A DNA stretch of 64,000 bases from a virus (Duplodnaviria; Caudoviricetes). The notes below the pieces were generated by a model. That model saw only the letters and a list, made by a program, of their open reading frames with translations, was not told the DNA's origin and searched no databases. Positions within the stretch are counted from its first letter, which is position 1. Every line of letters starts with the position of its first letter. Shown here in pieces: positions 3,778 to 64,000 of the stretch. Where the stretch lies: IMG/VR virus record IMGVR_UViG_3300031555_004710, positions 172,672 through 236,671 of that record; one strand, written 5' to 3'. The translations under genes were made by a program, and so were the position numbers.

Positions 3778-6700
3778 ATGAAAGGATGTGTTTTTATCAT
3801 GGCAATGCCAATTACTAAAGCACGTAAAGAACGTATTGATGTTTTAAATCAAGATATTGATACTAAACTTTCTGAAATTAAATCTACATATGAAAATAGT
3901 GGTTTTGGTTTTGATGCAGTTGCTGCAAATGGATTTAGTAGATCTAATTTAGTACAAGATTTAAATAATAACGTACATGGTATAGCAGTTCCTGAAGAAT
4001 CCGAAATTATATCTTTAGGAAATGTAAACGGATATGAAACTGTAAATGCATTTCCACTTAAAGGTAATTGTAAAAATGGAGTTAAATATGCTGACCCAAA
4101 TAACCCTGCTGAAGTTTATGTAGAAAATAACAGTAATACATTAGTAACTGATAGAGCTGATGAAAATTTAGATATCGATCGTTGGACTTCAAGAACTATA
4201 TTTAAATTCAAATCTGAGAACTATGGATATGATAGATGTGTTTATGTCATTCCAATTGCTGATTTAGCAAATGGATTTATTATTAATAGCGAAAAAGATA
4301 CTCCGCATGGAAATACATTAAAGAATTATCCATATCCAGAAGAAATTATTATGACTTCTCAAAAAACTGAGAAGAATTTTATTCATTTTATAAATGTCCA
4401 ATATACAGATAGTCACTATGGACATTTTAATGGAAGAAATTACAATTTAATGATTGTAAAAAATAGAACTAGATATGGAGTATTAGATGAATCTGGAAAT
4501 AGTTTTAAAGAATATACAAGTGTATATGCAAATGATATAGAAACTGAATTAGCATATGTAGATAACGGATATTTATATTTACCAGTTCCAAGTCCAGCAT
4601 TTGGTGAAGAGATGTTAGATACTCTATGGGATTGTAGAGTTATATGGAGAAGAGATATTCCAGATAGAAATATTTCTATTAACTTAGAGATCAATTCGGA
4701 TTCCAGAGATATTTATGCTAATTGGAAGGATGTTGTAGTTGAGTCTGAAGGAAGATTTTGGGACTCTATATGCTATGGTGATGGAAAATTCGTAGCTATT
4801 GGAAGTACTACTAATCTTACTGATGATACGATATGTGCTTATTCTACAGATTGTATAAATTGGACAGTGACCACAGTGAGTAGTAATAAAAGAATATCGA
4901 GTGACATATGCTATGGTGGTGGAAAATTCGTAGCTATTGGTTCAGGTACGACATTTGCTTATTCTACAGATTGTATAAATTGGACAGAAATTACTGTAAG
5001 TAATACATTTAACCTTTGGTCTTCTATATGCTATGGTGGTGGAAAATTCGTAGCTATTTGTTCAGGTACGACATTTGCTTATTCTACAAATGGTATAAAA
5101 TGGACAGAAATTACTGTATGTAATACAGAGGTATTAGTATGGAAAACCATATGTTATGGTGATGGAAAATTCGTAGCTCTTTCATCTAATCCAAATCTAT
5201 TTGTTTATTCTACGAATGGTATAAATTGGACGGAAGGTACTATAGGTAATATACGTAAATATTGGTCTTCCATATGTTATGGTGATGGAAAATTCGTAGC
5301 TATATCGAGTGGCAATGATTCTAATTCTAGCATAATATTTGCTTATTCTACTGACGGTATTAATTGGACAGAATATACAATAGAATCTGCAGTTAGATTC
5401 TGGGACTCTATATGCTATGGTGATGGAAAATTCGTAGCTATCGCAAATTATTCCCCAAATAAACAATTTATATTTGCTTATTCGACTGACGGTATTAATT
5501 GGACAGAAGGTTCAATGAGTATATATACTACTGGTTGGAAGTCTATATGTTATGGTGATGGGAAATTTGTATCTGTGGGAGCATACCATCCATTCACCTA
5601 TATTAATAGTGATGAAATTAATAGATTTGATGATGTTAATAGTATGCAAATCATCGATGATAGAATTCATTTAGGTTTTGGAAATAAAGATTATATTGCA
5701 TATAATAGAAGTTCCAATCTCAATTTAACTGGAGAATATTACGACATTGTAAATTCAATTATTGATGGTAGGTGTGTTATCACTGATGATGGGACTATAA
5801 AGATTGCACCTCTATTTAATGATAGTTATAATTTGATTCAGCCACTTCAAGATGATAGATTTGAATACTATTGGGGTGTAGGTTGCCCTAATCAAATATT
5901 TAAAATTTCCGATAATAATTATCTCGGTTTTTATTATAAATATTGTGATCATATAGGTGATGATTACATTGATGAAGTAACTCAATTATATTGGGGTATT
6001 TTTGATTCTAGCATGAGAACTATAAATCCCGTGCCATCCGATGATAGTCATATTCCTGAACCATATCCATGCCAATATTATTCATCAGAATTTATGAATA
6101 CTGGAAAAATAATAAAAGTATTTAGAGATAATATCAATGAAGTTACACAGAAATCTTCCTATTTAGTATTTGCTCAAAGAGGAATATATAGATTTAATTT
6201 CTGTATGACGGGGATAGATGCGATAGAACTTACATCAATAGAAACTATACTTACACTCGAATCTAAATATAACCGTTATACATTGTATGATATTGAACGA
6301 ATCTCAGATAGTGAATTTTATTTTATTTATGATATCGAATGTGTTAAGGTAGATATTATTGATAAAACGATGAGTCATATTTGTTCATTGGCAAATATAC
6401 TATTTGGTAGAACTTGTATTGCAGATCTTGGGCTTGGTGAATCAAATATCCAAAGATATTTATATGATAGTAATCAATTGATTATACCAAATAATAGCTA
6501 CTACGATACTGCATTAATTGAATCTGATAGCAAAATTAAATATAAATATGGTATATTTAAAAATGAGAAATATGAACCAATATTACACAAATTAGTAGAG
6601 AAATTTAGTTTCGATAAAGAACTTATGCAGCCTCCGTCGTATTGGATAAGTAGAGAATATACTATAAGCACATCATATAAATATAATGATATCTCTTATA

Positions 6701-7503
6701 GTGATGACAGGTTTATTGCTAAGAATCCTAATCGTAATACATTTGCTTATTCTACCGATGGTATTAATTGGATGGAAAATGAAGTTATTATGAGTGACAA
6801 TCTCAATACAACCTATTCTAGCATATGTTATGGTAATGGTAAGTATGTAGCAAGTAGATATACCGATAATATAGTATACTCTACTGATGGCATTAATTGG
6901 ATAGAAGTATCATTAGATAATTTCGGTGGAAGTTGGAATGACGTATGTTATGGAGATGGTAAATTTGTAGTAGTAGGGGATGCTGCTGGTGCAATAATTG
7001 CTTACTCTACCGATGGTATTAATTGGACACATGCTAGCACTGGTGCTGCTAATCTTAGCTATATAAAATACTGTGATGGTAAATTTATGTCAATCGATGA
7101 TACCAATAATCTCGTATATTCTGATGATGGTATTAATTGGAATTGGCATGAAATGGATATATCTATACCAGTTATCTATGATATGTGCTATGGAGATGGT
7201 AAATTTGTTGCAATTGGATGGGAAGATGACCAGAGTACCGAACCGTGGGGAACAACATCTTTTCTAACATATTCGACTGATGGTAGTACTTGGACAACTG
7301 TCTATATAGATATAGGTATTGAATGGGATTCTATATGCTATGGGGATGGTAAATTTGTAGTAGATAAGGGTTATTATTCTATCGATGGTATTAATTGGAT
7401 GCAGACTGGTACTACTTCACTAAATAGTATCTGTTACGGCAATGATAAATTTGTAGGAGTTAATTATAATTCATCTAAATCCACATTACTAATAGATTTT
7501 TAA
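3778..7503 (+). CDS. Large beta-propeller repeat protein, putative tail/receptor-binding protein
   Basis: Two blocks of seven W-x-S-I-C-Y-G-D-G-K-F-V / Y-S-T-D-G-I-N-W (Asp-box-like) repeats; late-type promoter motif at 3740-3751. Confidence 0.65.
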   Translation: MKGCVFIMAMPITKARKERIDVLNQDIDTKLSEIKSTYENSGFGFDAVAANGFSRSNLVQDLNNNVHGIAVPEESEIISLGNVNGYETVNAFPLKGNCKNGVKYADPNNPAEVYVENNSNTLVTDRADENLDIDRWTSRTIFKFKSENYGYDRCVYVIPIADLANGFIINSEKDTPHGNTLKNYPYPEEIIMTSQKTEKNFIHFINVQYTDSHYGHFNGRNYNLMIVKNRTRYGVLDESGNSFKEYTSVYANDIETELAYVDNGYLYLPVPSPAFGEEMLDTLWDCRVIWRRDIPDRNISINLEINSDSRDIYANWKDVVVESEGRFWDSICYGDGKFVAIGSTTNLTDDTICAYSTDCINWTVTTVSSNKRISSDICYGGGKFVAIGSGTTFAYSTDCINWTEITVSNTFNLWSSICYGGGKFVAICSGTTFAYSTNGIKWTEITVCNTEVLVWKTICYGDGKFVALSSNPNLFVYSTNGINWTEGTIGNIRKYWSSICYGDGKFVAISSGNDSNSSIIFAYSTDGINWTEYTIESAVRFWDSICYGDGKFVAIANYSPNKQFIFAYSTDGINWTEGSMSIYTTGWKSICYGDGKFVSVGAYHPFTYINSDEINRFDDVNSMQIIDDRIHLGFGNKDYIAYNRSSNLNLTGEYYDIVNSIIDGRCVITDDGTIKIAPLFNDSYNLIQPLQDDRFEYYWGVGCPNQIFKISDNNYLGFYYKYCDHIGDDYIDEVTQLYWGIFDSSMRTINPVPSDDSHIPEPYPCQYYSSEFMNTGKIIKVFRDNINEVTQKSSYLVFAQRGIYRFNFCMTGIDAIELTSIETILTLESKYNRYTLYDIERISDSEFYFIYDIECVKVDIIDKTMSHICSLANILFGRTCIADLGLGESNIQRYLYDSNQLIIPNNSYYDTALIESDSKIKYKYGIFKNEKYEPILHKLVEKFSFDKELMQPPSYWISREYTISTSYKYNDISYSDDRFIAKNPNRNTFAYSTDGINWMENEVIMSDNLNTTYSSICYGNGKYVASRYTDNIVYSTDGINWIEVSLDNFGGSWNDVCYGDGKFVVVGDAAGAIIAYSTDGINWTHASTGAANLSYIKYCDGKFMSIDDTNNLVYSDDGINWNWHEMDISIPVIYDMCYGDGKFVAIGWEDDQSTEPWGTTSFLTYSTDGSTWTTVYIDIGIEWDSICYGDGKFVVDKGYYSIDGINWMQTGTTSLNSICYGNDKFVGVNYNSSKSTLLIDF
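4755..5580 (+). repeat. Tandem coding repeats (7 units, about 120-140 bp)
   Basis: Near-identical ATATGYTATGGTGRTGGAAAATTCGTAGCT and GCTTATTCTAC...ATAAATTGGAC cores. Confidence 0.85.
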
Positions 7504-8135: not shown

Positions 8136-8265
8136 AAGATAATTGATATCTTCTATTCTTTTTTATTTTTAATTTAACTTATAAGTAATTGATTTAATAC
8201 CTAGATTTTTTTAATCGGCTTGGTATTAATATATTATTTTTATGTAATAGAAAGGAGTTGCTAAT

Positions 8266-9141
8266 ATGCAAGGGAACATAAAAGGAAAATTTAAAGTAAT
8301 AACACTTTGCGGTTCAAGTAAATTCAAGAAAGAATTTATAGAAGTTGCAGAAAAACTTTCATTGGAAGGAAATATTGTAATTTCATTAGGATTATTTGGT
8401 CATGCTGATAATAAGTTTGCTACAGTGATAACTGATGATGTTAAAGCAATGCTTGACGCAGCGCATAAACAAAAAATTGAAATGTCTGATGCAATTTATG
8501 TAATAAATCCAGGAGGATATATAGGAGACTCAACTAGAAGTGAAATAGGTTATGCAATTAATCTTGGAAAAGAAGTTCATTTCTTAGAACCAATAAAAAG
8601 TATTCAAAAAATCGGTGATATATATAAAGTTATTACTGATAATGATACTCTTGATTCACCTGGAGATCCTATGAATAATGATATTATTACGTATAAAATA
8701 GATGATTTTAAGTATTTTGATGATTTATGTTCATTCTATAGAAATACACCAAAAGAAGAAGTTATAGATAAAAATCTTTTATTTAGAATAACTGCATCTG
8801 GTGGATATGATTATCGTAATAAATATATCGAAGAAGACGATCTTATAAAACCAATTATTGTAGATGGTTTATTGACTTGGATTAAAATACCATTATCATT
8901 TGATGGATTATCATTGTCGACTAGTTTCAAAGACCTTTGTGAAACATTTAATCCACATATACACATGGCTAAATTTGGTAAAGTTTATCAAATTATAAAG
9001 GGTGGAGGAAAAGATTATTATGGTGAGCCTATAATGGATGGTGATTATTTAACATATCATGATACTAAAAAAGGAGTTTATGCATGGAGTAAACTCCACA
9101 GTAAATTATTGGAGGTAATACAAAATGAGCAAATCAAATAA
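8266..9141 (+). CDS. Protein with N-terminal nucleoside deoxyribosyltransferase-like (DUF4406-type) domain
   Basis: ITLCGSSKFK...HKQKIEMSDAIYVINPGGYIGDSTRSEIGYA pattern; promoter motif at 8230-8244. Confidence 0.55.
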   Translation: MQGNIKGKFKVITLCGSSKFKKEFIEVAEKLSLEGNIVISLGLFGHADNKFATVITDDVKAMLDAAHKQKIEMSDAIYVINPGGYIGDSTRSEIGYAINLGKEVHFLEPIKSIQKIGDIYKVITDNDTLDSPGDPMNNDIITYKIDDFKYFDDLCSFYRNTPKEEVIDKNLLFRITASGGYDYRNKYIEEDDLIKPIIVDGLLTWIKIPLSFDGLSLSTSFKDLCETFNPHIHMAKFGKVYQIIKGGGKDYYGEPIMDGDYLTYHDTKKGVYAWSKLHSKLLEVIQNEQIK

Positions 9142-10415
9142 ATGTAATATAGAATACGTTAGAGTAGAAAAGATACCACTTGACTTAGAGTGTTGGCATG
9201 ATATTGCTACTGGCAATGGTATTAGACTTACTTCAGTTGAATCTTTTGATAAAAAGAATCAGAAGATATATAGAGGGCTTCAGTCAGAATTCTTTGGTTC
9301 AGACTTTTCATCAGACTGGGCTTTTAAAGAAAGATATAGTTGTAAATGTGGAAAATATATGGCTAAAGCATATTCTGGAATGGTATGTGATTTCTGTGGC
9401 ACTAAAGTAGAATATCACGATATTGACCTTAAGAAAACTGGATGGGTAATTCTTGATAAGTTCGAAGTTCTTTCTCCTATATATTCGGCAAAACTTACAG
9501 AAGCGTTAGGTAAGGCTGATGGAGAATCTGTACTTAGAATGATACTTAATCGTAGATATCATGAAGAAGGGGTAATTGAGTACTCTGAAAAAGAATTAAC
9601 AAACATAAAGAAGCATCCATTTTCTCAAAGAGGTATGCAGTGGCTTAGAGAGAATATAATGGAAGTATTAGACTTCTACGAAAAGAGAAAACCTGGTAAA
9701 CAAAAACTCTTTGAAGAACTTAGAAATGAACAGGCTAATATGTGGACACATTCTATTCCTATTTACAGTTCTCTTTTAAGAACAGAACTTCCTGGAGAAA
9801 AAGGTTCTAAAAACTTTAAGCTTAAAGTAAACACTCATTTCAAATCAATCATTCGATTAGTAAATGCAATTAATGATATAGACCCAGATGATATGGATTA
9901 TATCACATTAAATTCTATAGATATATATCTTGCAGGAATTCAAAAAGAAATAGACCAAGTATTTGATGTTACTTTTAAAGACCTTACAGATAAAACTGGT
10001 ATTATAACAAGTAAGATACTCGGTGGAAGATATAACTTTAGTTCAAGAGATATTATAGTTCCTGATAGTGGAACTTTAAGGTCTGATGAAGTTATAATAG
10101 GATATATACCATTTCTTGAATTATATAGATATGAAATTCAGAATGAATATAGAAAAATACATGGCTGTACTCCAGCACAAGCAAATACTGCTTGGAAAAG
10201 AGCGACTAATCATTTCGATCCTAAGATTTATGCTATAATAGAGCATATGGTTAATGACCCTGAATATAGAAGATATTTAGGTGTATTGATTAACAGAAAT
10301 CCTAGTATAAACTATGGATCATTTGATTATGTTAAAATCGTTGGTGTTAAGAAAGATATCTCGGATAAAACTCTTACAATACCAACACACATAATAGTTC
10401 CAATGAATGCCGACT
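9125..10415 (+). CDS. RNA polymerase beta'-like subunit, N-terminal part (putative non-virion RNAP), exon 1
   Basis: Zn finger CKCG...CDFC, GGRYNFSSR, NRNPSI, ends at PMNAD; joined to exon 2 it gives NADFDGD (spliced product 488 aa). Confidence 0.9.
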
Positions 10416-10742
10416 TAACAAATCCGTTGAGGTCGGGTACAGTAGTAATATTGTACATGTATCTAGGTGAACGCTTAACCAGCGGTGTCTATTCTATAGG
10501 CTAACGGTAGAAGTTAGATAAGCATTATAGATGTCGAATACGCTTCGTAAGAAAAGCTACGGTCCATTTATAATATGGATAGCAGCCAATACCGTGCCAA
10601 GCTTCTATATACATATAGTTGAAGGTGTAGAGACTAATTATTAGGATATATGATGGAAAGCATATATTCGAAGCGCCTAGCTCCTATGTAAATAGGATGA
10701 AGATATAGTCCACATATTATTGAAAAATAGTAATTATTATTG
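10416..10742 (+). mobile_element. Group I self-splicing intron without ORF (327 nt)
   Basis: Exon ends in U paired with G in P1 (CCGACU/GGUCGG); R element GTAGAGACTA and S element AAGATATAGTCC form P7; terminal G at 10742; removal restores GAC TTC GAT GGC GAT. Confidence 0.93.
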
Positions 10743-27169: not shown

Positions 27170-28318
27170 TTAATTATAAAGCCATCTTAATTTAAATACA
27201 TTTCCTTTATCAGTTTTACAGTGGAAAATTACAGGTCTTCCGACAAAGTTCTTACCAAGGAATGTATCAGCATTATATATTGGAACTGTATGTTTAGTAT
27301 AGTCGAATGGATTTAATTTTTTATCTTTAAAAGCCCCATTCATAGCAGTATAGCCTAATGAATTATATTGAAAATCCATAAGAATATATCTATCCATTTG
27401 CTCACATACAAAGTAAGAAAATGTAATAGAAGTTTTAGTTTCTGCACCACTATTTCTATTAAAACTTAAATCGGACATTGGTACCGCAGTTGGAACACAA
27501 CCTGTATATTTAGCCCAATATACTATATTTTCTCCAGTTTCATCTACGATGAAATCATATATACTTGTAGCATAGTCCAATGCATTATATTGTAAATATC
27601 TATCTTTTGGACGGAAAATATTTCGCATTACTTTATCTTGATAATATATCCATGCATAGAATAATTTATGAATAGAATAATACTTATCTTCCCTGAAACT
27701 AAGATCGAAAGAACCTCCTGTTAGAGATTCTATAGCCGATGTAGTATATGGTATTGTGTATTTAGTATATGGCTGAACTATTGCATTTTGTTTAATTGAA
27801 TAGTCTGGTAGTTGTAAAGATTCTACTCTTGTAGTTATATATGGCATAAATGAATGAAGTGGTAACGGTGTTCCATCAATTGATGTGTTCGATGATTTTA
27901 ACCCCGCGAAATCGCTTGTTAATGATGCAATTATTTCTGGGTGCCATTGAGCAAGATATGTAAAATAAGGATCTACATGTACTCTACTCTCTGAACTTAA
28001 AGTTATTTTTCCATCCGTACACAAATCCGAATTTACTAAATATAAATCTGGTCTACACATAAAAATATAATGTCTACCAGATGGTAATTCATTTTCTAAA
28101 TCGACAGAATAAAATCTATCAAAATCTACCCAAAATTGTTTATGAGATTTATCTTCTGTACCATCATTCATCTGAAGACGCACATTCATATATCTATTAT
28201 GTTCATTTTCAGTGAAATTTGAAGAAAAATATCCAGGTAATAATCCATATTCTCTATTTACTTTACTATTAGATACTTGATACGATGTCGATTTAAACAA
28301 CCAATCGCGTAGAGCCAT
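27170..28318 (-). CDS. Putative tail-tube-fold / baseplate protein
   Basis: RPDL, LPD.S, F.LSFRED, YWAKYTGCVP.AVP pattern resembles tube-like baseplate proteins; late motif at 28362-28374. Confidence 0.5.
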   Translation of the reverse strand: MALRDWLFKSTSYQVSNSKVNREYGLLPGYFSSNFTENEHNRYMNVRLQMNDGTEDKSHKQFWVDFDRFYSVDLENELPSGRHYIFMCRPDLYLVNSDLCTDGKITLSSESRVHVDPYFTYLAQWHPEIIASLTSDFAGLKSSNTSIDGTPLPLHSFMPYITTRVESLQLPDYSIKQNAIVQPYTKYTIPYTTSAIESLTGGSFDLSFREDKYYSIHKLFYAWIYYQDKVMRNIFRPKDRYLQYNALDYATSIYDFIVDETGENIVYWAKYTGCVPTAVPMSDLSFNRNSGAETKTSITFSYFVCEQMDRYILMDFQYNSLGYTAMNGAFKDKKLNPFDYTKHTVPIYNADTFLGKNFVGRPVIFHCKTDKGNVFKLRWLYN

Positions 28319-28500
28319 TTATTACTCCCCCTTTCTATATTTTGGGATTCTAATCGTTCATTATCAAAATTGTTAAAATATAGAAAAATAGAAATTAATT
28401 TTCAATCATATATTATTTTAATGGTGTAGAGTAATAAATTTGAGTTTATTAAAAATGGTTAATTTAGAGACAGAAATCTCACTGTCAATTAAAAGCGATT

Positions 28501-29670
28501 ATGAAAGGAGATATAGCAATGAAATTCTTCACAAAAGTTATTAAATTTGTAAAGAAAGCATTTCGTGCAATTGCAAAAATGTTTAAAGATAAAAATCCTG
28601 TTGAAGTAATCAATGATGTTACAAAAGCATCTGTTGCACTAGCTACAACTGGATTAGCTTTATATACAGGAGTTAATGCTATTAGAGTGCATTTTGCTCC
28701 ATCCACAAAGAAGAATAAAAATTACAATGGTAAATCTGCTCACGAAATAATATTTGAAAATCGTAATGCTGGTTCCATTGATGAAAAACTTGCGACTATT
28801 AGAAAGAATAATTCTAGAATAGGCAAAAAGCATTCCACCACAATAAAATCAGAGGATTTGAAAGTTCTCGAATCTATTGCAAAAACCAGAAATAGTTTCT
28901 TCCAGAGTCTGTCTGCGGAAGAGCAAATGAATGTCCTTGAAATGGAGGATTTTGATTTTAAAGCATACTCAAAAGAGATGAAAAAGAAATCACGTTTTTC
29001 ATTATTTGGGAATAAAAAGTGTTCTAAGAAGCTAGGAGTTTCATCTACTAATAAAGCTTTTCGTGAACCTGTAAATTATGGATTCTTTAATTTCATTTTA
29101 CAGCCAATTGACGACTTTATTCATTGGATAAAGAATGACCCAGTTCCAAAGAAGGTTCCTCAGATTCAAGTAATTGAGCATCCTGAAATTCCTAATGTTC
29201 CTTGTGAGACTGCATTAGATCTAGTTTCTACTGCAAGAAATTTAGAATCCTATTTGAGTCATAACAAAACATTATCATCAGAATTTAATGTCACAACTCC
29301 AGCAGAGAGTGAAGAACAACAAATTCTCGCAGATGAAATATTTAGACACAAATCTTTATCAAAATTCAAAAGGGCGGTGAATAGATGTATGGCACAGTCT
29401 AATTTTAATACTCCAAACATCTTTGATTTAATGGACGATGACAAAAATTTTAAGAAAAAGAAAAAGAATAAAAAGAAACATTCCTACGATGATGATTTTT
29501 CGTTCATGGATAATGACAAACCTAAGAAGAAAAAGAAAAAAGGTATGAGTAAAGAAGATCGTGAAGCTGAAAGCATGGCTGATAAACGAGCAAAAGAATT
29601 ATATAGATACCATTTAGAAAAAGCAATGAAAGGCGAATTTGACAGAAAAGGATATGGATTTGACTTTTAA
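28501..29670 (+). CDS. Hypothetical lysine-rich protein (putative early)
   Basis: 389 aa, promoter at 28409-28423, terminator downstream. Confidence 0.7.
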   Translation: MKGDIAMKFFTKVIKFVKKAFRAIAKMFKDKNPVEVINDVTKASVALATTGLALYTGVNAIRVHFAPSTKKNKNYNGKSAHEIIFENRNAGSIDEKLATIRKNNSRIGKKHSTTIKSEDLKVLESIAKTRNSFFQSLSAEEQMNVLEMEDFDFKAYSKEMKKKSRFSLFGNKKCSKKLGVSSTNKAFREPVNYGFFNFILQPIDDFIHWIKNDPVPKKVPQIQVIEHPEIPNVPCETALDLVSTARNLESYLSHNKTLSSEFNVTTPAESEEQQILADEIFRHKSLSKFKRAVNRCMAQSNFNTPNIFDLMDDDKNFKKKKKNKKKHSYDDDFSFMDNDKPKKKKKKGMSKEDREAESMADKRAKELYRYHLEKAMKGEFDRKGYGFDF

Positions 29671-29790
29671 TTTGAAATCTTAGGAATATTTGCAAATATC
29701 CCTTACAGGATAATAAGAGAGAACTATCAGAGTTCTCTCTTATTTTTTATTTCGTAATAATAAATTTTTTTATTGATATATTATTATTAT

Positions 29791-30154
29791 GAGTAAGTAA
29801 GATTATAATGGTCGGGTGACTCTATAAGTTCTTGCGGAGATAAACATCGGTAAGATTGGAAATCTTGGGATGTCCGGGGAATGACTAGATACCATTATCT
29901 TAAGTGCAATAATCTATCCACCCAATGTCGATACCAGGCAGAGGGACTAGATTAACACCGAGGGTATTCTTATAATGTTAATTTATAAGAATCATTCAAT
30001 CAATAAACGAAAATAGTCGATAATAAGTTGGCAGCTTGCATTGACCACCATACTCAATGCAATACGGAAACCAACTTGACAATCTTCTATAAGTCCATCG
30101 AATATTGAAAGATGATTCAAGTAGATTAATATTTAGAATACTCTCTTACTGCTC
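29791..30154 (+). ncRNA. Putative structured ncRNA (~364 nt), family unknown
   Basis: Early promoter motif 29777-29791; 5' GAGTAAGTAAGA pairs with 3' TCTTACTGCTC; several internal helices; no ORF; downstream T-run. Confidence 0.7.
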
Positions 30155-30184
30155 GAAAATCTAATCTAATTTATTTTTTTTTTC

Positions 30185-30293
30185 AAAAAAATATATGAAG
30201 CGAAATCACGGGATTTCGCTTCATATATAAAAGGAGTAGCTAATGAGCATGACAATAGAAAAAACACATTAAAGTTCAAAAACTTTACGACTT
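30185..30293 (-). ncRNA. Putative late small RNA with anti-Shine-Dalgarno seed
   Basis: AACA-N6-TA at 30293-30304 (minus), 5' hairpin 30270-30287, seed CAUUAGCUACUCCUUUU, terminator hairpin 30191-30228 plus U-run. Confidence 0.5.
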
Positions 30294-30328
30294 ACTTTAT
30301 TGTTATATAGATTTTGCATTATTATACA

Positions 30329-30628
30329 CTATAGTTCATCTATATGAGGACCAGTAATAGTACCATACCAAGCTACTTTACCATCAGTAGTCGTCTGTTT
30401 ACCATAAACTTCCTCACAAATATATTCTTGCTCATCTTCAACTTTAATAACTGATTCAGTGTTATTATTTTTTTCTTTTCTTTCCTTTAATGCTTCTATT
30501 CCCATTTCTAAAGCTTCGATATATTTTTTGACACCATGATCTTGATATCTCTTTTCATATCCTCGTTTTATAAAATCGAGAATATAAATAGCCATATCTT
30601 CATTAGGGCACATTTTATATTCACTCAT
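30329..30628 (-). CDS. Small hypothetical protein
   Basis: AGGAGG RBS; EALEMGIEALKE motif common in small phage proteins. Confidence 0.7.
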   Translation of the reverse strand: MSEYKMCPNEDMAIYILDFIKRGYEKRYQDHGVKKYIEALEMGIEALKERKEKNNNTESVIKVEDEQEYICEEVYGKQTTTDGKVAWYGTITGPHIDEL

Positions 30629-30646
30629 ATAGAATACCTCCTATAA

Positions 30647-30988
30647 TTACCACCATGAATAAAATTCTTGATTCTCTTCATTACCTCTATAAGTCTCAAC
30701 TTCTTCATTTCTTACAATTTTTCCATCCTTAAGAATAAATCCTTTTTTACCAGAGTTTCTGAAATCATATATTTTATATGCTTCAGCGTATACCTGCTCT
30801 TCAATACCCAGTCTCCTTGCAAAAAGTTGCAATTCATAAACTTGGTCAAGTAGCCATGATGAATGATTCTTATCTTTTTTATTATAAAACCATTCATCTG
30901 CTCGCTTTTGTAAATCTGCAATCTCTTTTGCAAATTCTTTTATGATAGTTTTTCTTCTTACTAAAAATTTCATGTAAATAACCTCCAT
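30647..30988 (-). CDS. Small hypothetical protein
   Basis: GGAGG RBS before MKFLVR. Confidence 0.7.
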   Translation of the reverse strand: MEVIYMKFLVRRKTIIKEFAKEIADLQKRADEWFYNKKDKNHSSWLLDQVYELQLFARRLGIEEQVYAEAYKIYDFRNSGKKGFILKDGKIVRNEEVETYRGNEENQEFYSWW

Positions 30989-31108
30989 TTAAGACTTATA
31001 GATTTATTCTGAATTATAAGAATTATTAAACATTCCTTTATTTTATGCTAAAAAACAGCCTCTTAAAGATTAGAGATTATTAATTATATAGAAAGGAGCT
31101 GAGATAAT

Positions 31109-34042
31109 ATGTCTTACTTTACAGTAAGTTTAAGTGAGCTTCTCAGTAATTCTCATATATCAGCAATGGAAGCTAAATCGGAGCCAATTGAAATAATATC
31201 CAAAGTTGAAGATCCGGATGTATCAATGGCGATAGCTCTCATTACTGATAATATTATAATGAATTCAAATTTGAAGCCAGTTACAGATCCAATTGCTCAC
31301 AGTGCTGGAGGAATTCCAACAGATGGTGGATTATTTTCTGATATAATATTTGGCAGAGACCCAGAGTCTAGGCAGAGACAATTTGCGTATATTGATCTTC
31401 ATGAAAAGTTCTTTCATCCATATGTATACGAAATATTAAAAGCATTAATGCCAAAAAGATTTGAAAAATGTGCTCATGGAAGTGGAACGTCATGGAAAAT
31501 TACAAACGATGGTGAATTAGTTGAAGTTAAAAAGGGAAATGCCGATTATAATGAAGATAATAGTGGTATAGCATGGCTTATAAAAAATTACCATAAATTA
31601 AAATTTTCTGAAACTGGTTCTATGATAAGAGGAGATAGAATTAAACTTCTAAAATCTCTTTCAGATAATGAAATATTTATTACTAAATGGATTGTAGTTC
31701 CGATTGTCTATAGAGATATTGATAAAAATTCAAGTATTCATAAATTACCGGAACTAAATACTCATTATAATAAGATTATTCAATATGCTAATAGTCTTAA
31801 AGATGCGACATTTGATTTCTTTAATAATCAAATTAGATATAATCTACAGCAAGAATTGATAATAATTCGTAAATATGGTCAGAGTCTTATTGAGAAGAAA
31901 CATGGGTTTTTCCATAAAGCAATTCTAGGTAAGTCAATAGATAGAGGTTCTCGTGACGTAATCTCTGTACCAACGATGACTAACTTGCAGAGACCTGAAG
32001 ATAATCCTATTGATATTTTTCATAGTGGAATTCCTCTTGCAAAATGTCTTATTCTTGGATATGATTTTGTTTTAAGATATTGCATCCAATTCTTCGCTGA
32101 TAACTTTAGAAATGTAACAGAATATCCCGTGCATAAATTAGTTAACGGTGAGTATAAAATTGTAGGTTCTGTTAAAATAAAGAATCAAGTTGAAAAATTT
32201 TCTTCCGATTATATAAAGAAGAAAATTAATAGATTCAAAAACTCATATGGAACTCGTTTTGAATATATTATGATTGAGACAGAAGACGGTCAGGAAATAC
32301 CTATGCATTTATCTGGCCAGTTTGCACCTATGTCTGAGACAAAACCTATGACATCTACTATTATAAATCGTCCTATGACTTGGACCGATTTGTTCTATTT
32401 AGCTGCAGAAAATACTTTAAGTGATAAGTATGTATATATAACTCGTTTCCCAGTTACTTCTCATAGTAGTATTTTCCCATCTCAATGTAGAGTATTATCT
32501 ACAATTAAAACTATCCCAGCTTATATAGATGGTCAATTTTATAAGTACTATCCTTATATTGATTTAAATACTCCAAAGGATAGAATTTCTAGTGTATTCA
32601 ATGATACAGTTACAATGTCAAATATGTATCTTGCTGCACTTGGTGGAGACTATGATGGTGACCAAACTGCTCAGAAATTATGTTTCTCTATTGAAGCAAA
32701 TGCCGAAGCAAAAGAGATTGCTGAATCTGTAAGAAACTTTGTTTCTCCTGAAGGAAAATTACTACGTACTCTTGGAAATGAAGCATATCTTACATTCTAT
32801 AATATGACTAGAGATAAACCATCCGGAGGTATCTTGTCTAATGAACTTAAGAAAGAATTATTAGCTCTTAAATCTAAAGAGCTTACAATTAATAAAATTG
32901 CTGACCTTTTTGGTAAAACTACATCAATGAATAGTAAGGATAAAAAATCTGTATTTGATGTAAAGGAACCAAAATTTAATCCTCAAGCTAAATTTACTTT
33001 ACAAGCTGGAGAGTATATTAATAAAGAAACTATTACCACTACAGTCGGTATTTTCTTATTTAATAAACTTCTAATTGAAGGGTTACTTGAGGATGTGGTT
33101 CCTGGTGGTTATTATAATGAAATTTGTAATAAAAAGAATTTCAGTAAATTGACTGATATGGTAGCATCTGCTATCATGAGTCAGAAAATTCAAATTAAGC
33201 CTACTTTAGTAGACTTTTTAAATGCAAATGAATTTTGGGGATTGGGATTAGTAGCTATTTTTGGCACTTCTTATTCCATGGAAACTATAGTTCCTAATAA
33301 ACAGTTAGAAGCTAAGAAAGCGGAGTTACTTAAGAATGCTCCAGATAATGACTTGGCTACGTTATCTAAAATAGAGCAAGAATTGATTAAAGAAGCTGAT
33401 AGATTAACTGAAGGCACTCCTGGTAAATTCTTATTTGATTCAGGTGCAAGAGGTTCTTTTAGTAATGACTTTAAGAATATGGCAATCAGTATTGGTCCTG
33501 TAGAAAATCCTATAACTGGAGAATTTGACTTCATGTCTTCTAACTATATGCAAGGTATTAAGAAAGAAGATATTCCTGCTGCTGCTAATAGTATACTTAA
33601 TGCTGAATATCCTAAAGCAATAGGTACTGCAAAAGGTGGTTACATGGGTAAAATCATGTATTCAGTATTCCAAACAATGGGAATTGATGAAGATGGAACT
33701 GATTGTGGTACTAATAATGGTCTAATGGTAACATTAACCAAAGATAATATAAGAGATTATTATGATCAATATATAATGGATGGAAAAAATCTTATTTTAA
33801 TAGATGCTTATCTTCCAGTAAAATATATGAATCATCCCGTAATGCTAAGAAGCCCAATGTATTGTATTAGTGATAAATTGTGTAGTAAATGTGCAGGCAA
33901 GAGATTCTATAAGGTAGGAATTACCGACATAGGTCTTACAGTACCAGCAATGACCGGTTCACTTATGAACGCACAATTGAAAAAAAGGCATAGCATGGAA
34001 GTTAAAATGCACTATATTGACGAGAATGAGATATTAAAATAG
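31109..34042 (+). CDS. RNA polymerase beta'-like subunit (putative virion RNAP), single polypeptide
   Basis: GGLFSDIIFG, ILGKSID..SR.VI, TRFP, GGDYDGD catalytic motif, SGARG, DCGT, RSPMYC..LCSKCAG; late promoter 31054-31065 and N-terminal SAME-A processing site. Confidence 0.9.
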   Translation: MSYFTVSLSELLSNSHISAMEAKSEPIEIISKVEDPDVSMAIALITDNIIMNSNLKPVTDPIAHSAGGIPTDGGLFSDIIFGRDPESRQRQFAYIDLHEKFFHPYVYEILKALMPKRFEKCAHGSGTSWKITNDGELVEVKKGNADYNEDNSGIAWLIKNYHKLKFSETGSMIRGDRIKLLKSLSDNEIFITKWIVVPIVYRDIDKNSSIHKLPELNTHYNKIIQYANSLKDATFDFFNNQIRYNLQQELIIIRKYGQSLIEKKHGFFHKAILGKSIDRGSRDVISVPTMTNLQRPEDNPIDIFHSGIPLAKCLILGYDFVLRYCIQFFADNFRNVTEYPVHKLVNGEYKIVGSVKIKNQVEKFSSDYIKKKINRFKNSYGTRFEYIMIETEDGQEIPMHLSGQFAPMSETKPMTSTIINRPMTWTDLFYLAAENTLSDKYVYITRFPVTSHSSIFPSQCRVLSTIKTIPAYIDGQFYKYYPYIDLNTPKDRISSVFNDTVTMSNMYLAALGGDYDGDQTAQKLCFSIEANAEAKEIAESVRNFVSPEGKLLRTLGNEAYLTFYNMTRDKPSGGILSNELKKELLALKSKELTINKIADLFGKTTSMNSKDKKSVFDVKEPKFNPQAKFTLQAGEYINKETITTTVGIFLFNKLLIEGLLEDVVPGGYYNEICNKKNFSKLTDMVASAIMSQKIQIKPTLVDFLNANEFWGLGLVAIFGTSYSMETIVPNKQLEAKKAELLKNAPDNDLATLSKIEQELIKEADRLTEGTPGKFLFDSGARGSFSNDFKNMAISIGPVENPITGEFDFMSSNYMQGIKKEDIPAAANSILNAEYPKAIGTAKGGYMGKIMYSVFQTMGIDEDGTDCGTNNGLMVTLTKDNIRDYYDQYIMDGKNLILIDAYLPVKYMNHPVMLRSPMYCISDKLCSKCAGKRFYKVGITDIGLTVPAMTGSLMNAQLKKRHSMEVKMHYIDENEILK

Positions 34043-34087: not shown

Positions 34088-34173
34088 GTATAAGTATTTA
34101 ATGAATCTGTTTTTATTTGTATATTATTTATATGAGTAATTAAATATATTTATTTTACTAAGGAGGAAAAATA

Positions 34174-46862: not shown

Positions 46863-47691
46863 GAGTAGTAGAATAAATATATTGGTTTTTAATAAGTTTT
46901 ACATATATAGGCGTCGTGTATCTATTACTCCATGTTGATGAAAACTTTAGACGAGGATGGCATGCTCGTTGACTATGATGGTGATAGGGAAAGTCACATA
47001 GTTGCACTATAAATATAATGGCCGCATGTGGCGTGGATCAAACGTGGAGGGTCCGTCGTTATATTTATATAGTGAGCTCGGTTCTATCGTGGACTATCAC
47101 GTAGGACAGCATATTGATAGATAGGCTAGGTCGGTCATGTAATGTAGCTCAGTTTACTATATAGTCATAGAATAGACCTGAAAGTCTGAGCGGGCGAATA
47201 TTGAGTGGATAATCTATAATTATCGATGAGGCGAAATATCCCATGACAAAGGATGAGGTGTGGTCAAGGCAGAGAATAACTCTAGGCCTTGGTGTAATTG
47301 AAATTATAGTTATTCACTCGATTAGTAGCTTTAATTACCTTATGATACTTTTATAATACTTATTGCCACATTTGAGTATTATTTAAGTTATAAATAGATA
47401 CCTGAAGTTGCCTAAAGTCTGAAATAAACATTTCAGAAGACAAAGCACGCCAAGCTAAGCGAGTATCGGACTTAGTGGGTTACCGAGTTTCCTGATTGGA
47501 TAGTATACTAAATGACCCTGTTGTACGAAATGGTATCCATCAACTATATTAAAAAATAAATTTATTTAAATATTATGTACTTATAGTTGATGAAAATACT
47601 CGGCGCCATAATAGTGATATTATGGGAAAGTGACTTCTGAGGGGAGGTCACTATATATAAAAACTGTATATAATTTACTTCTTCCCACCTC
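46863..47691 (+). ncRNA. Putative giant structured ncRNA (~830 nt)
   Basis: Early promoter 46849-46863; no credible ORF over 1 kb; visibly GC-richer than flanks; terminal pairing and more than 12 helices readable by eye. Confidence 0.8.
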
Positions 47692-47820
47692 ACTTTTATA
47701 TATCGATACTATATAAAAGTATTATACGTTATGATTTCCTTCTTCCTGGAATTTTATCCCTATTCCAGTGTTTAATCATAATGTATTATTAAATGGTAAA
47801 TTATATACAATATAGTTTTA

Positions 47821-47851
47821 GAGAAAGTATAAAGGGTGCTTTCTCTTTTTT
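47821..47851 (+). terminator. Intrinsic terminator downstream of the large ncRNA
   Basis: GAGAAAGTAT-AAAGG-GTGCTTTCTC followed by a T-run. Confidence 0.7.
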
Positions 47852-47899
47852 ATAAAAAATGTATAGAGAATGAGTATATACTCATTCTCTATATTAATC

Positions 47900-63980: not shown

Positions 63981-64000
63981 ATGACAAACAAAAGCTATCA
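63981..64000 (+). CDS. Start of a gene truncated by the window edge
   Basis: Promoter motif 63938-63952, AAAAGGAG RBS, ATG ACA AAC... Confidence 0.6.

Follow-up and report, generated by a model that had tools for sequence, protein, structure and literature searches.

What does a stretch of little more than 100 nt encode when one strand reads as a late promoter, a hairpin and a terminator, and the other as an RBS followed by a start codon? Such a stretch lies between a small gene and a convergent early ncRNA in the genome of a giant phage. A sequence-only reading had proposed that its minus strand specifies a late sRNA, in which an anti-SD seed shuts off the early operon that encodes a subunit of the non-virion RNAP, with a plus-strand minigene as the alternative. 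The best joint explanation of the comparisons presented here, to which we give about an even chance, is that the unit is a real, conserved late small RNA gene with an anti-SD/anti-AUG tract. Gene 8266, the first gene of the proposed target operon, is not singled out as its target.

The window, that is, the whole stretch of DNA that was analysed, comprises 64,000 nt, bases 172672-236671 of an IMG/VR virus record that is 236,671 bp long and has a G+C content of 29.7%. The source is an uncultured AR9-like giant (jumbo) gut phage of the virulent AR9 type, and split multisubunit RNA polymerases of the phiKZ/AR9 kind are encoded in the window. Judged by RNAP, the nearest deposited phages are only 27-35% identical (AR9 itself ~33%), and no DNA similarity to deposited phages, AR9 included, was found. 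No relatives turned up in IMG/VR when the RNAP, an alignment of the 389-aa neighbour or an 18-nt DNA word served as the query; the single IMG/VR DNA match (L008) was rejected as a chance match within an unrelated gene, and a scan of genome contigs gave a 21%-identical relative only. Relatives were recruited via the neighbouring virion RNAP beta' gene and the 108-aa small gene. The close relatives are three independent contigs, L003, L066 (= L067) and L070, with ~86% RNAP identity, and the five copies referred to below are those of the window, L003, L066/L067 and L070, plus a paralog in the same genome as the window. (Promoter-bearing sequences are repeated near both ends of the record, genome 63-124 matching 236574-236635 at an offset of 236,511 bp, which points to overlapping ends or to circular permutation of the genome; an exact prefix-suffix test of the record ends was negative.)

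How much weight can the late motif carry? In AR9, late promoters mapped by dRNA-seq have the form AACA-(6N)-TA/G, with the start at the last base; seven of them drive antisense RNAs, mostly late in infection, and transcription terminates strongly at predicted hairpin terminators (PMC5312081). The genome studied here contains 369 AACA-N6-T(A/T) sites, of which 98 are intergenic, intergenic DNA being 9.9% of the genome, and the intergenic sites show a sharp preference for a position 44-45 nt before the next start codon. The 46 intergenic sites that stand 30-65 nt before start codons, including those of virion RNAP and tail genes, serve as reference late promoters. The base after TA is A in 46/46 and the next one is T or A in 44/46, and the flanks prefer an A/T run at -15 to -12 and T/A at +3. 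AACA-N6-TAA is thus a genuine late promoter motif of this genome. The bare AACA-N6-TW core, on the other hand, should turn up by chance roughly once in every kb of AT-rich spacer; by itself, therefore, the late motif proves nothing. Early promoters form a separate class, with an extended consensus in which TCGTA stands ~20 nt upstream of (C/G)A-TATATTATT-N4-TGA; TATATTAT is found in 32 of the 98 upstream regions that lack the late motif. (There is also a late-promoter subclass, AACA-N-(A/T)TCATT-AAATACTTA, at window 34100, 53927 and 63903, all on the minus strand; the orphan late promoter at 34100 points into the hairpin after an RNAP gene, making a unit of ~51 nt.)

All the parts that had been described on the minus strand are present (Table 1). 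The candidate promoter has the AR9 late core, AACA-ATAAAG-TA, with an A at +2 as well, and transcription is predicted to start at the A at 30293, but its flanks are atypical. With flanks included it scores 1.9 bits, below all 46 references (at least 2.3, median 12.5) and in the upper fifth of chance matches inside genes, and the G at its +3 position occurs in 0/46 of the reference mRNA late promoters. The flanks typical of late promoters in this genome are likewise missing from the other copies, which score from -3.0 to 2.8. The 5' hairpin is followed by an unpaired stretch of ~40 bases, ending in ...AUUAGCUACUCCUUUU / ...CAUUAGCUACUCCUUUU, and then by the terminator, the stem of which has 17 bp, 5 G-C pairs and a 4-nt loop, with a U-tract on the minus strand only. 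The fold of the predicted 109-nt RNA has z = -5.6, to which the terminator contributes most. An Rfam covariance-model search of window 28000-32000 (E <= 1) gave no match, nor did Rfam searches at the orthologous sites of L003 and L066, and no tRNA or protein-family match was found for the stretch.

Table 1. Features of the small RNA locus and of related sites (window positions unless marked as genome).
Feature	Position	Strand	Remarks
Candidate AR9-type late promoter	30293..30309	-	TATAT 30309-30305, AACA 30304-30301, 6-nt spacer, TA 30294-30293
Conserved RNA 5' end, AAGUCG	30288..30293	-	Identical in five copies
5' hairpin, UAAAGUU-UUUG-AACUUUA	30270..30287	-	7 bp, predicted fold
Single-stranded tract	30229..30269	-	Anti-AUG CAU 30245-30243, anti-SD CUCC 30236-30233
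Intrinsic terminator	30184..30228	-	17-bp stem 30228-30191, then U7 30190-30184
99-aa gene	30329..30628	-	No family match; also in L014, absent from L003, L066 and L070
Conserved 108-aa gene	30647..30973	-	72-76% identity to L003/L066 genes; stop directly before the unit in relatives
Structured early ncRNA with promoter	29752..30183	+	Ends at a T-run abutting the terminator of the unit
Mini-ORF MSMTIEKTH	30243..30272	+	GGAG 30233-30236, 6 nt upstream; judged not to be a gene
Paralog	genome 156266-156150 (outside the window; L074:250-372)	-	TATAT-AACA-TAAAAA-TAAGTCG
Early promoters (examples)	8230, 23406, 28409, 29777, 48528, 62259

Is this arrangement retained where the surrounding DNA changes? 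The gene order RNAP, divergent small gene, unit and convergent ncRNA is kept in all three relatives, and AACA-N6-TAAGTCG(T/A)AA lies after the stop of the small gene in each (in L066 and L070 the TAA of this gene overlaps AACA). AACA and TAAGTCG, 11 core bases, are invariant at an exact 6-nt spacing in 5/5 copies, although the spacers vary (ATAAAG, TAAATG, ATTAAG and ATAAAA; TAAAAA in the paralog); the bases that separate the motif from the stop codon are unrelated among copies and cannot be aligned. A hairpin stands directly 3' of AAGUCG in 5/5 copies, its stem sequences being unrelated, and CAU-N6-10-C(U/A)CC is also kept in 5/5, with an unpaired probability of 0.64-1.0 for C(U/A)CC. The tract reads UUAGCUACUCC in the window (plus-strand copy AAAGGAGTAGCTAAT), UUUAAUCAUCUCCUUG and UUUAAUCAUCUCC in L066/L070, and UUUUUCUAUCUCCGUA and UUUUUCUAUCUCC in L003; GUC(A/G)UGCUCAUU is common to the window, L066 and L070. 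The terminators of the relatives are stems of 15-19 bp in the same place, the apical stem sequence varying by copy, and the unit is ~80-125 nt long in these phages. (MAFFT alignments of the five copies are out of structural register.) The U-tract is better on the minus, RNA-unit strand in every copy, and weak in L003 and L066. Fold energy favours the sense strand in three copies and the antisense strand in two; a strand assignment from fold energy or G-U pairs was accordingly rejected as mixed. Where RNAP identity falls to 68-74%, the relatives have another gene beside the ncRNA, and the unit is absent from them. As far as seen, the unit appears to be confined to a narrow clade of ~86% RNAP identity. 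Homologs of the 108-aa gene occur at 51 metagenome loci, mostly in unrelated phages; these loci are uninformative on the unit, because another gene directly follows the homolog. A relaxed search of related jumbo-phage loci (AACA-N6-TAAG plus terminator) yielded one more, doubtful case, at L010:557.

In the paralog, which measures ~105 nt, the hairpin has 7 bp and the terminator 17 bp, with an unpaired ...AUCACCCCGUU... tract between them. This terminator is the reverse side of a 17-bp bidirectional one, and the paralog is flanked on one side by a plus-strand gene's terminator and on the other by the next plus-strand early promoter. Since no same-strand gene is found upstream, the paralog needs its own promoter if it is expressed. 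The pattern TATATAACA-N6-TAAGTCG, with 16 specified bases, has 0 matches in 100 window shuffles, even with one mismatch allowed. The architecture goes beyond chance because it is conserved and recurs in the paralog. With at least one paralog in the genome, the unit would be a member of a small RNA family. (Other large gene-free gaps, at genome 86470-87582, 97477-98681 and 68182-68611 and at window 47008-47899, are probably further RNA genes; several have high-scoring orphan late or early promoters, such as those at genome 86810 (-), 87507 (-), 97790 (+) and 68286 (+).)

The 99-aa gene is extra in the window relative to L003, L066 and L070, where the 108-aa gene directly precedes the RNA unit; it was inserted between the two, and the unit stayed with the terminator side when this happened. 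Downstream lies the convergent ncRNA, ~390 nt long, behind a perfect early promoter of the form TCGTA-N20-TATATTATT-N4-TGAG (29752-29800). It is kept in all seven relatives examined, including L003, L005, L012, L013, L066 and L070, and its fold has 121 predicted pairs, 31 of them with compensatory changes among three sequences; a U-G wobble in L003 favours the plus strand. Pairing in trans between the small RNA and the ncRNA is no better than for shuffles. Within the ncRNA region, the 14 bases that are best conserved (window 30083-30096, GGACTTATAGAAGA in the minus reading) have exactly one other copy in the genome, at 91374-91387 (minus; L071). That copy forms the extreme 5' end of an early mRNA whose leader is 150 nt long and whose 173-aa product has an extremely acidic tail; the ncRNA, being on the plus strand, would complement this end perfectly. 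The small RNA tract, too, has its best predicted partner in the gene with the 14-base copy (genome 91234..90713), although this prediction alone is not significant. (In L013 a tRNA gene, 7164-7249 on the minus strand, stands between the ncRNA and the next gene, and L012:561-1162 on the plus strand contains two group I introns, Rfam RF00028, at 56-61 bits.)

Could the stretch be explained in another way? Of the alternatives, the most credible, though itself unlikely, is that it is the long 3' UTR and terminator of the operon 30973..30329, from which an sRNA would arise by processing, with AACA-N6-TA inactive. The unit indeed begins only ~24-25 nt after the TAG of the 99-aa gene, and in L066 and L070 it overlaps a stop codon; the low promoter score with flanks fits such an origin, and virulent phages provide a precedent in 3'UTR-derived late ncRNAs without their own start, such as ncRNA1 and ncRNA2 of PAK_P3 (PMC10914365). 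However, among 77 genes with a recognisable terminator, the terminator follows the stop codon at a median distance of 5 nt (90th percentile, 15 nt), and the 100 nt of the unit is the third largest distance, which argues that it is not an ordinary 3' UTR. (The other outlying distances are 176 nt after window 3799..7503 and 163 nt after genome 51888..52148.) Processing from the operon also leaves aside the exact spacing at which AACA is kept, the position of the unit on the terminator side of the inserted gene, and the paralog, which has no operon to be processed from. It is far less probable that the unit is functionless, its motif, hairpin and C-rich tract being leftovers near a terminator that persist through close kinship. 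The comparison covers just three orthologs, all at ~86% RNAP identity, and the bare core arises by chance at the rate given above; yet the adjacent bases have diverged past alignment while the 11 core bases and the architecture are retained, and 16 specified bases recur, with the same plan, in an independent paralog.

A different alternative places the function on the plus strand: ribosomes would enter at an SD-ATG just after the hairpin, either on the ncRNA's 3' tail or on a mini-ORF, and the minus-strand RNA would be at most a cis-antisense regulator, for which P22 sar is the model. This is improbable, standing between the two preceding alternatives. In its favour, GGAG or GGTG can be read 6-10 nt before an ATG on the plus strand in 5/5 copies (four have ATGAGCA), and in distant relatives the ncRNA is followed by a real gene on the same strand with its own SD-ATG. 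The plus-strand SD-ATG is, however, the mirror of the anti-SD/anti-AUG tract, and what follows it is not kept. The minigene MSMTIEKTH of the sequence-only reading exists, together with its strong RBS, but its stop comes after nine codons, and the corresponding ORFs run to 20 aa in L066, >22 in L070, 18 in L003 and 28 in the paralog; the frame in L070 is shifted against that in L066 by a 1-nt indel, and the peptides share no sequence past the first codons. The minigene was rejected because the ORF is conserved in neither length, frame nor sequence, and a type I toxin-antitoxin system because the five copies have no conserved opposite-strand peptide ORF. In the paralog, the SD-ATG falls between a terminator and the next early promoter, with no evident plus-strand transcription or promoter, which counts against both; nor is there a plus-strand U-tract or promoter specific to the mini-ORF. 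In L005, L012 and L013, the proteins encoded after the ncRNA have N-termini without similarity to the mini-ORFs, so a fossil start of a downstream gene was rejected.

How, then, would the late small RNA act? The non-virion RNAP would transcribe 30309-30184 on the minus strand from the AACA-N6-TA core, presumably late in infection and with a start at 30293. The RNA would begin with AAGUCG, fold its 5' hairpin, expose the CAU-N6-10-CUCC tract and end at the intrinsic terminator. Late in infection, the exposed C/U-rich tract may pair with the SD and start codon of phage or host mRNAs, and pairing at such translation initiation regions would block the access of ribosomes.

Which mRNAs would these be? 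According to the sequence-only reading, the small RNA would be dedicated to repressing, late in infection, two early targets, operon 8266-10504 and the gene at 63981, and would thereby provide feedback on the polymerase. The observations behind this proposal are sound. AAAGGAGTAGCTAAT agrees with the RBS of gene 8266 in 14/15 positions and with that of the gene at 63981 in 13/15, both genes follow TATATTAT early-type promoters (at 8230 and 63938), and 8266..9141 overlaps 9125..10504, which matches the RNAP subunit family phrog_2987. The match can be extended over the start codon of 8266 to 18/22, and in RNAduplex predictions for 210 genes 8266 ranks second, at -24.8 kcal/mol. But a match of at least 14/15 to another RBS is reached by 74 of 212 real RBS regions (35%), which makes the 14/15 seed match uninformative: in an AT-rich genome with strong, stereotyped RBSs, such a match carries no information. 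Local alignment to the start of 8266 scores 25, about the 90th percentile of gene starts compared with each other (p ~0.10), and a partial duplication of the 8266 gene start was rejected on the same figures. The best RNAduplex partner is another early gene, that of the acidic-tailed protein mentioned above (-29.3 kcal/mol), and 15% of pseudo-seeds, made as reverse complements of real RBS regions, reach -29.3 kcal/mol or lower. Used as a seed, AAGUCG has eleven complementary 8-mers in the genome, one of them at a start codon against ~0.2 expected, which is not significant. Among the predicted partners, then, neither RBS matches nor alignment nor RNAduplex gives complementarity above the null, and the tract differs between the window and its relatives. 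A dedicated repressor of the 8266 operon is therefore the least probable of all the readings considered.

The tract pairs slightly better with early than with late initiation regions (medians -14.9 vs -13.3 kcal/mol; uncorrected p = 0.03); for a generic 16S tail it is the late regions that pair better (p = 0.005). The preference of the tract is no more than a weak hint toward late shut-off of early genes. A broader activity can be imagined in which a family of small RNAs, transcribed late by the non-virion RNAP, displays a mimic of the 16S rRNA 3' tail and titrates the SDs of early and/or host mRNAs. The 3' tail of Firmicute 16S rRNA is AUCACCUCCUU, and similar tracts are AUCAUCUCCUU in L066/L070, AUCACCCCGUU in the paralog and CUACUCCUUU in the window. 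We consider such mimicry doubtful, with a probability between those of the 3' UTR and plus-strand alternatives; if true, it would amount to an RNA-based late translational shut-off.

What would a late small RNA gene at this locus mean? To our knowledge, RNA regulators are almost unexplored in virulent jumbo phages that encode their own RNAPs, and we know of no assigned function among the late antisense and UTR-derived RNAs in the transcriptomes of AR9 and phiKZ. If the preferred explanation is true, the unit offers a concrete candidate for a regulator that acts post-transcriptionally, either on the switch from early to late genes or on host translation, and promoters of the AACA-N6-TA class drive RNA genes in addition to protein genes.

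Several known systems resemble the unit in part. The C-rich sRNAs of Firmicutes (RsaE/RoxS and the S. aureus Rsa RNAs) have hairpins, an unpaired C-rich motif that pairs with G-rich SDs, and an intrinsic terminator; they are host-encoded, and their UCCC or CCCC motifs are often in loops. The unit shares their layout of hairpins, unpaired anti-SD motif and intrinsic terminator, but it is phage-encoded, has a phage-RNAP promoter core and carries an anti-AUG in its tract as well. Among phages, P22 sar RNA is an antisense repressor of an RBS. The c4 RNA of P1 and P7 is likewise a small phage antisense RNA that acts on an RBS (PMC12197685). In c4 and sar, as would be the case here, a small phage RNA covers an RBS with exposed bases and blocks translation. 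Those RNAs, however, have one defined target (ant), belong to temperate phages and are made by the host RNAP, whereas the unit is without a supported specific target and belongs to a phage of the virulent AR9 type. The late promoters of AR9 have the same AACA-(6N)-TA core, with the start at the last A, and are likewise combined with hairpin terminators (PMC5312081). There is no sequence similarity between the two phages, no anti-SD tract is known to us in the antisense RNAs of AR9, and the transcript of the unit is a predicted one. In position the unit resembles ncRNA1 and ncRNA2 of PAK_P3 and the candidates from phiKZ, abundant late RNAs of ~90-210 nt that lie between a stop codon and a terminator (PMC10914365). 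The PAK_P3 RNAs are processed and have no start site of their own; the unit described here differs from them in its conserved promoter core and in its stand-alone paralog.
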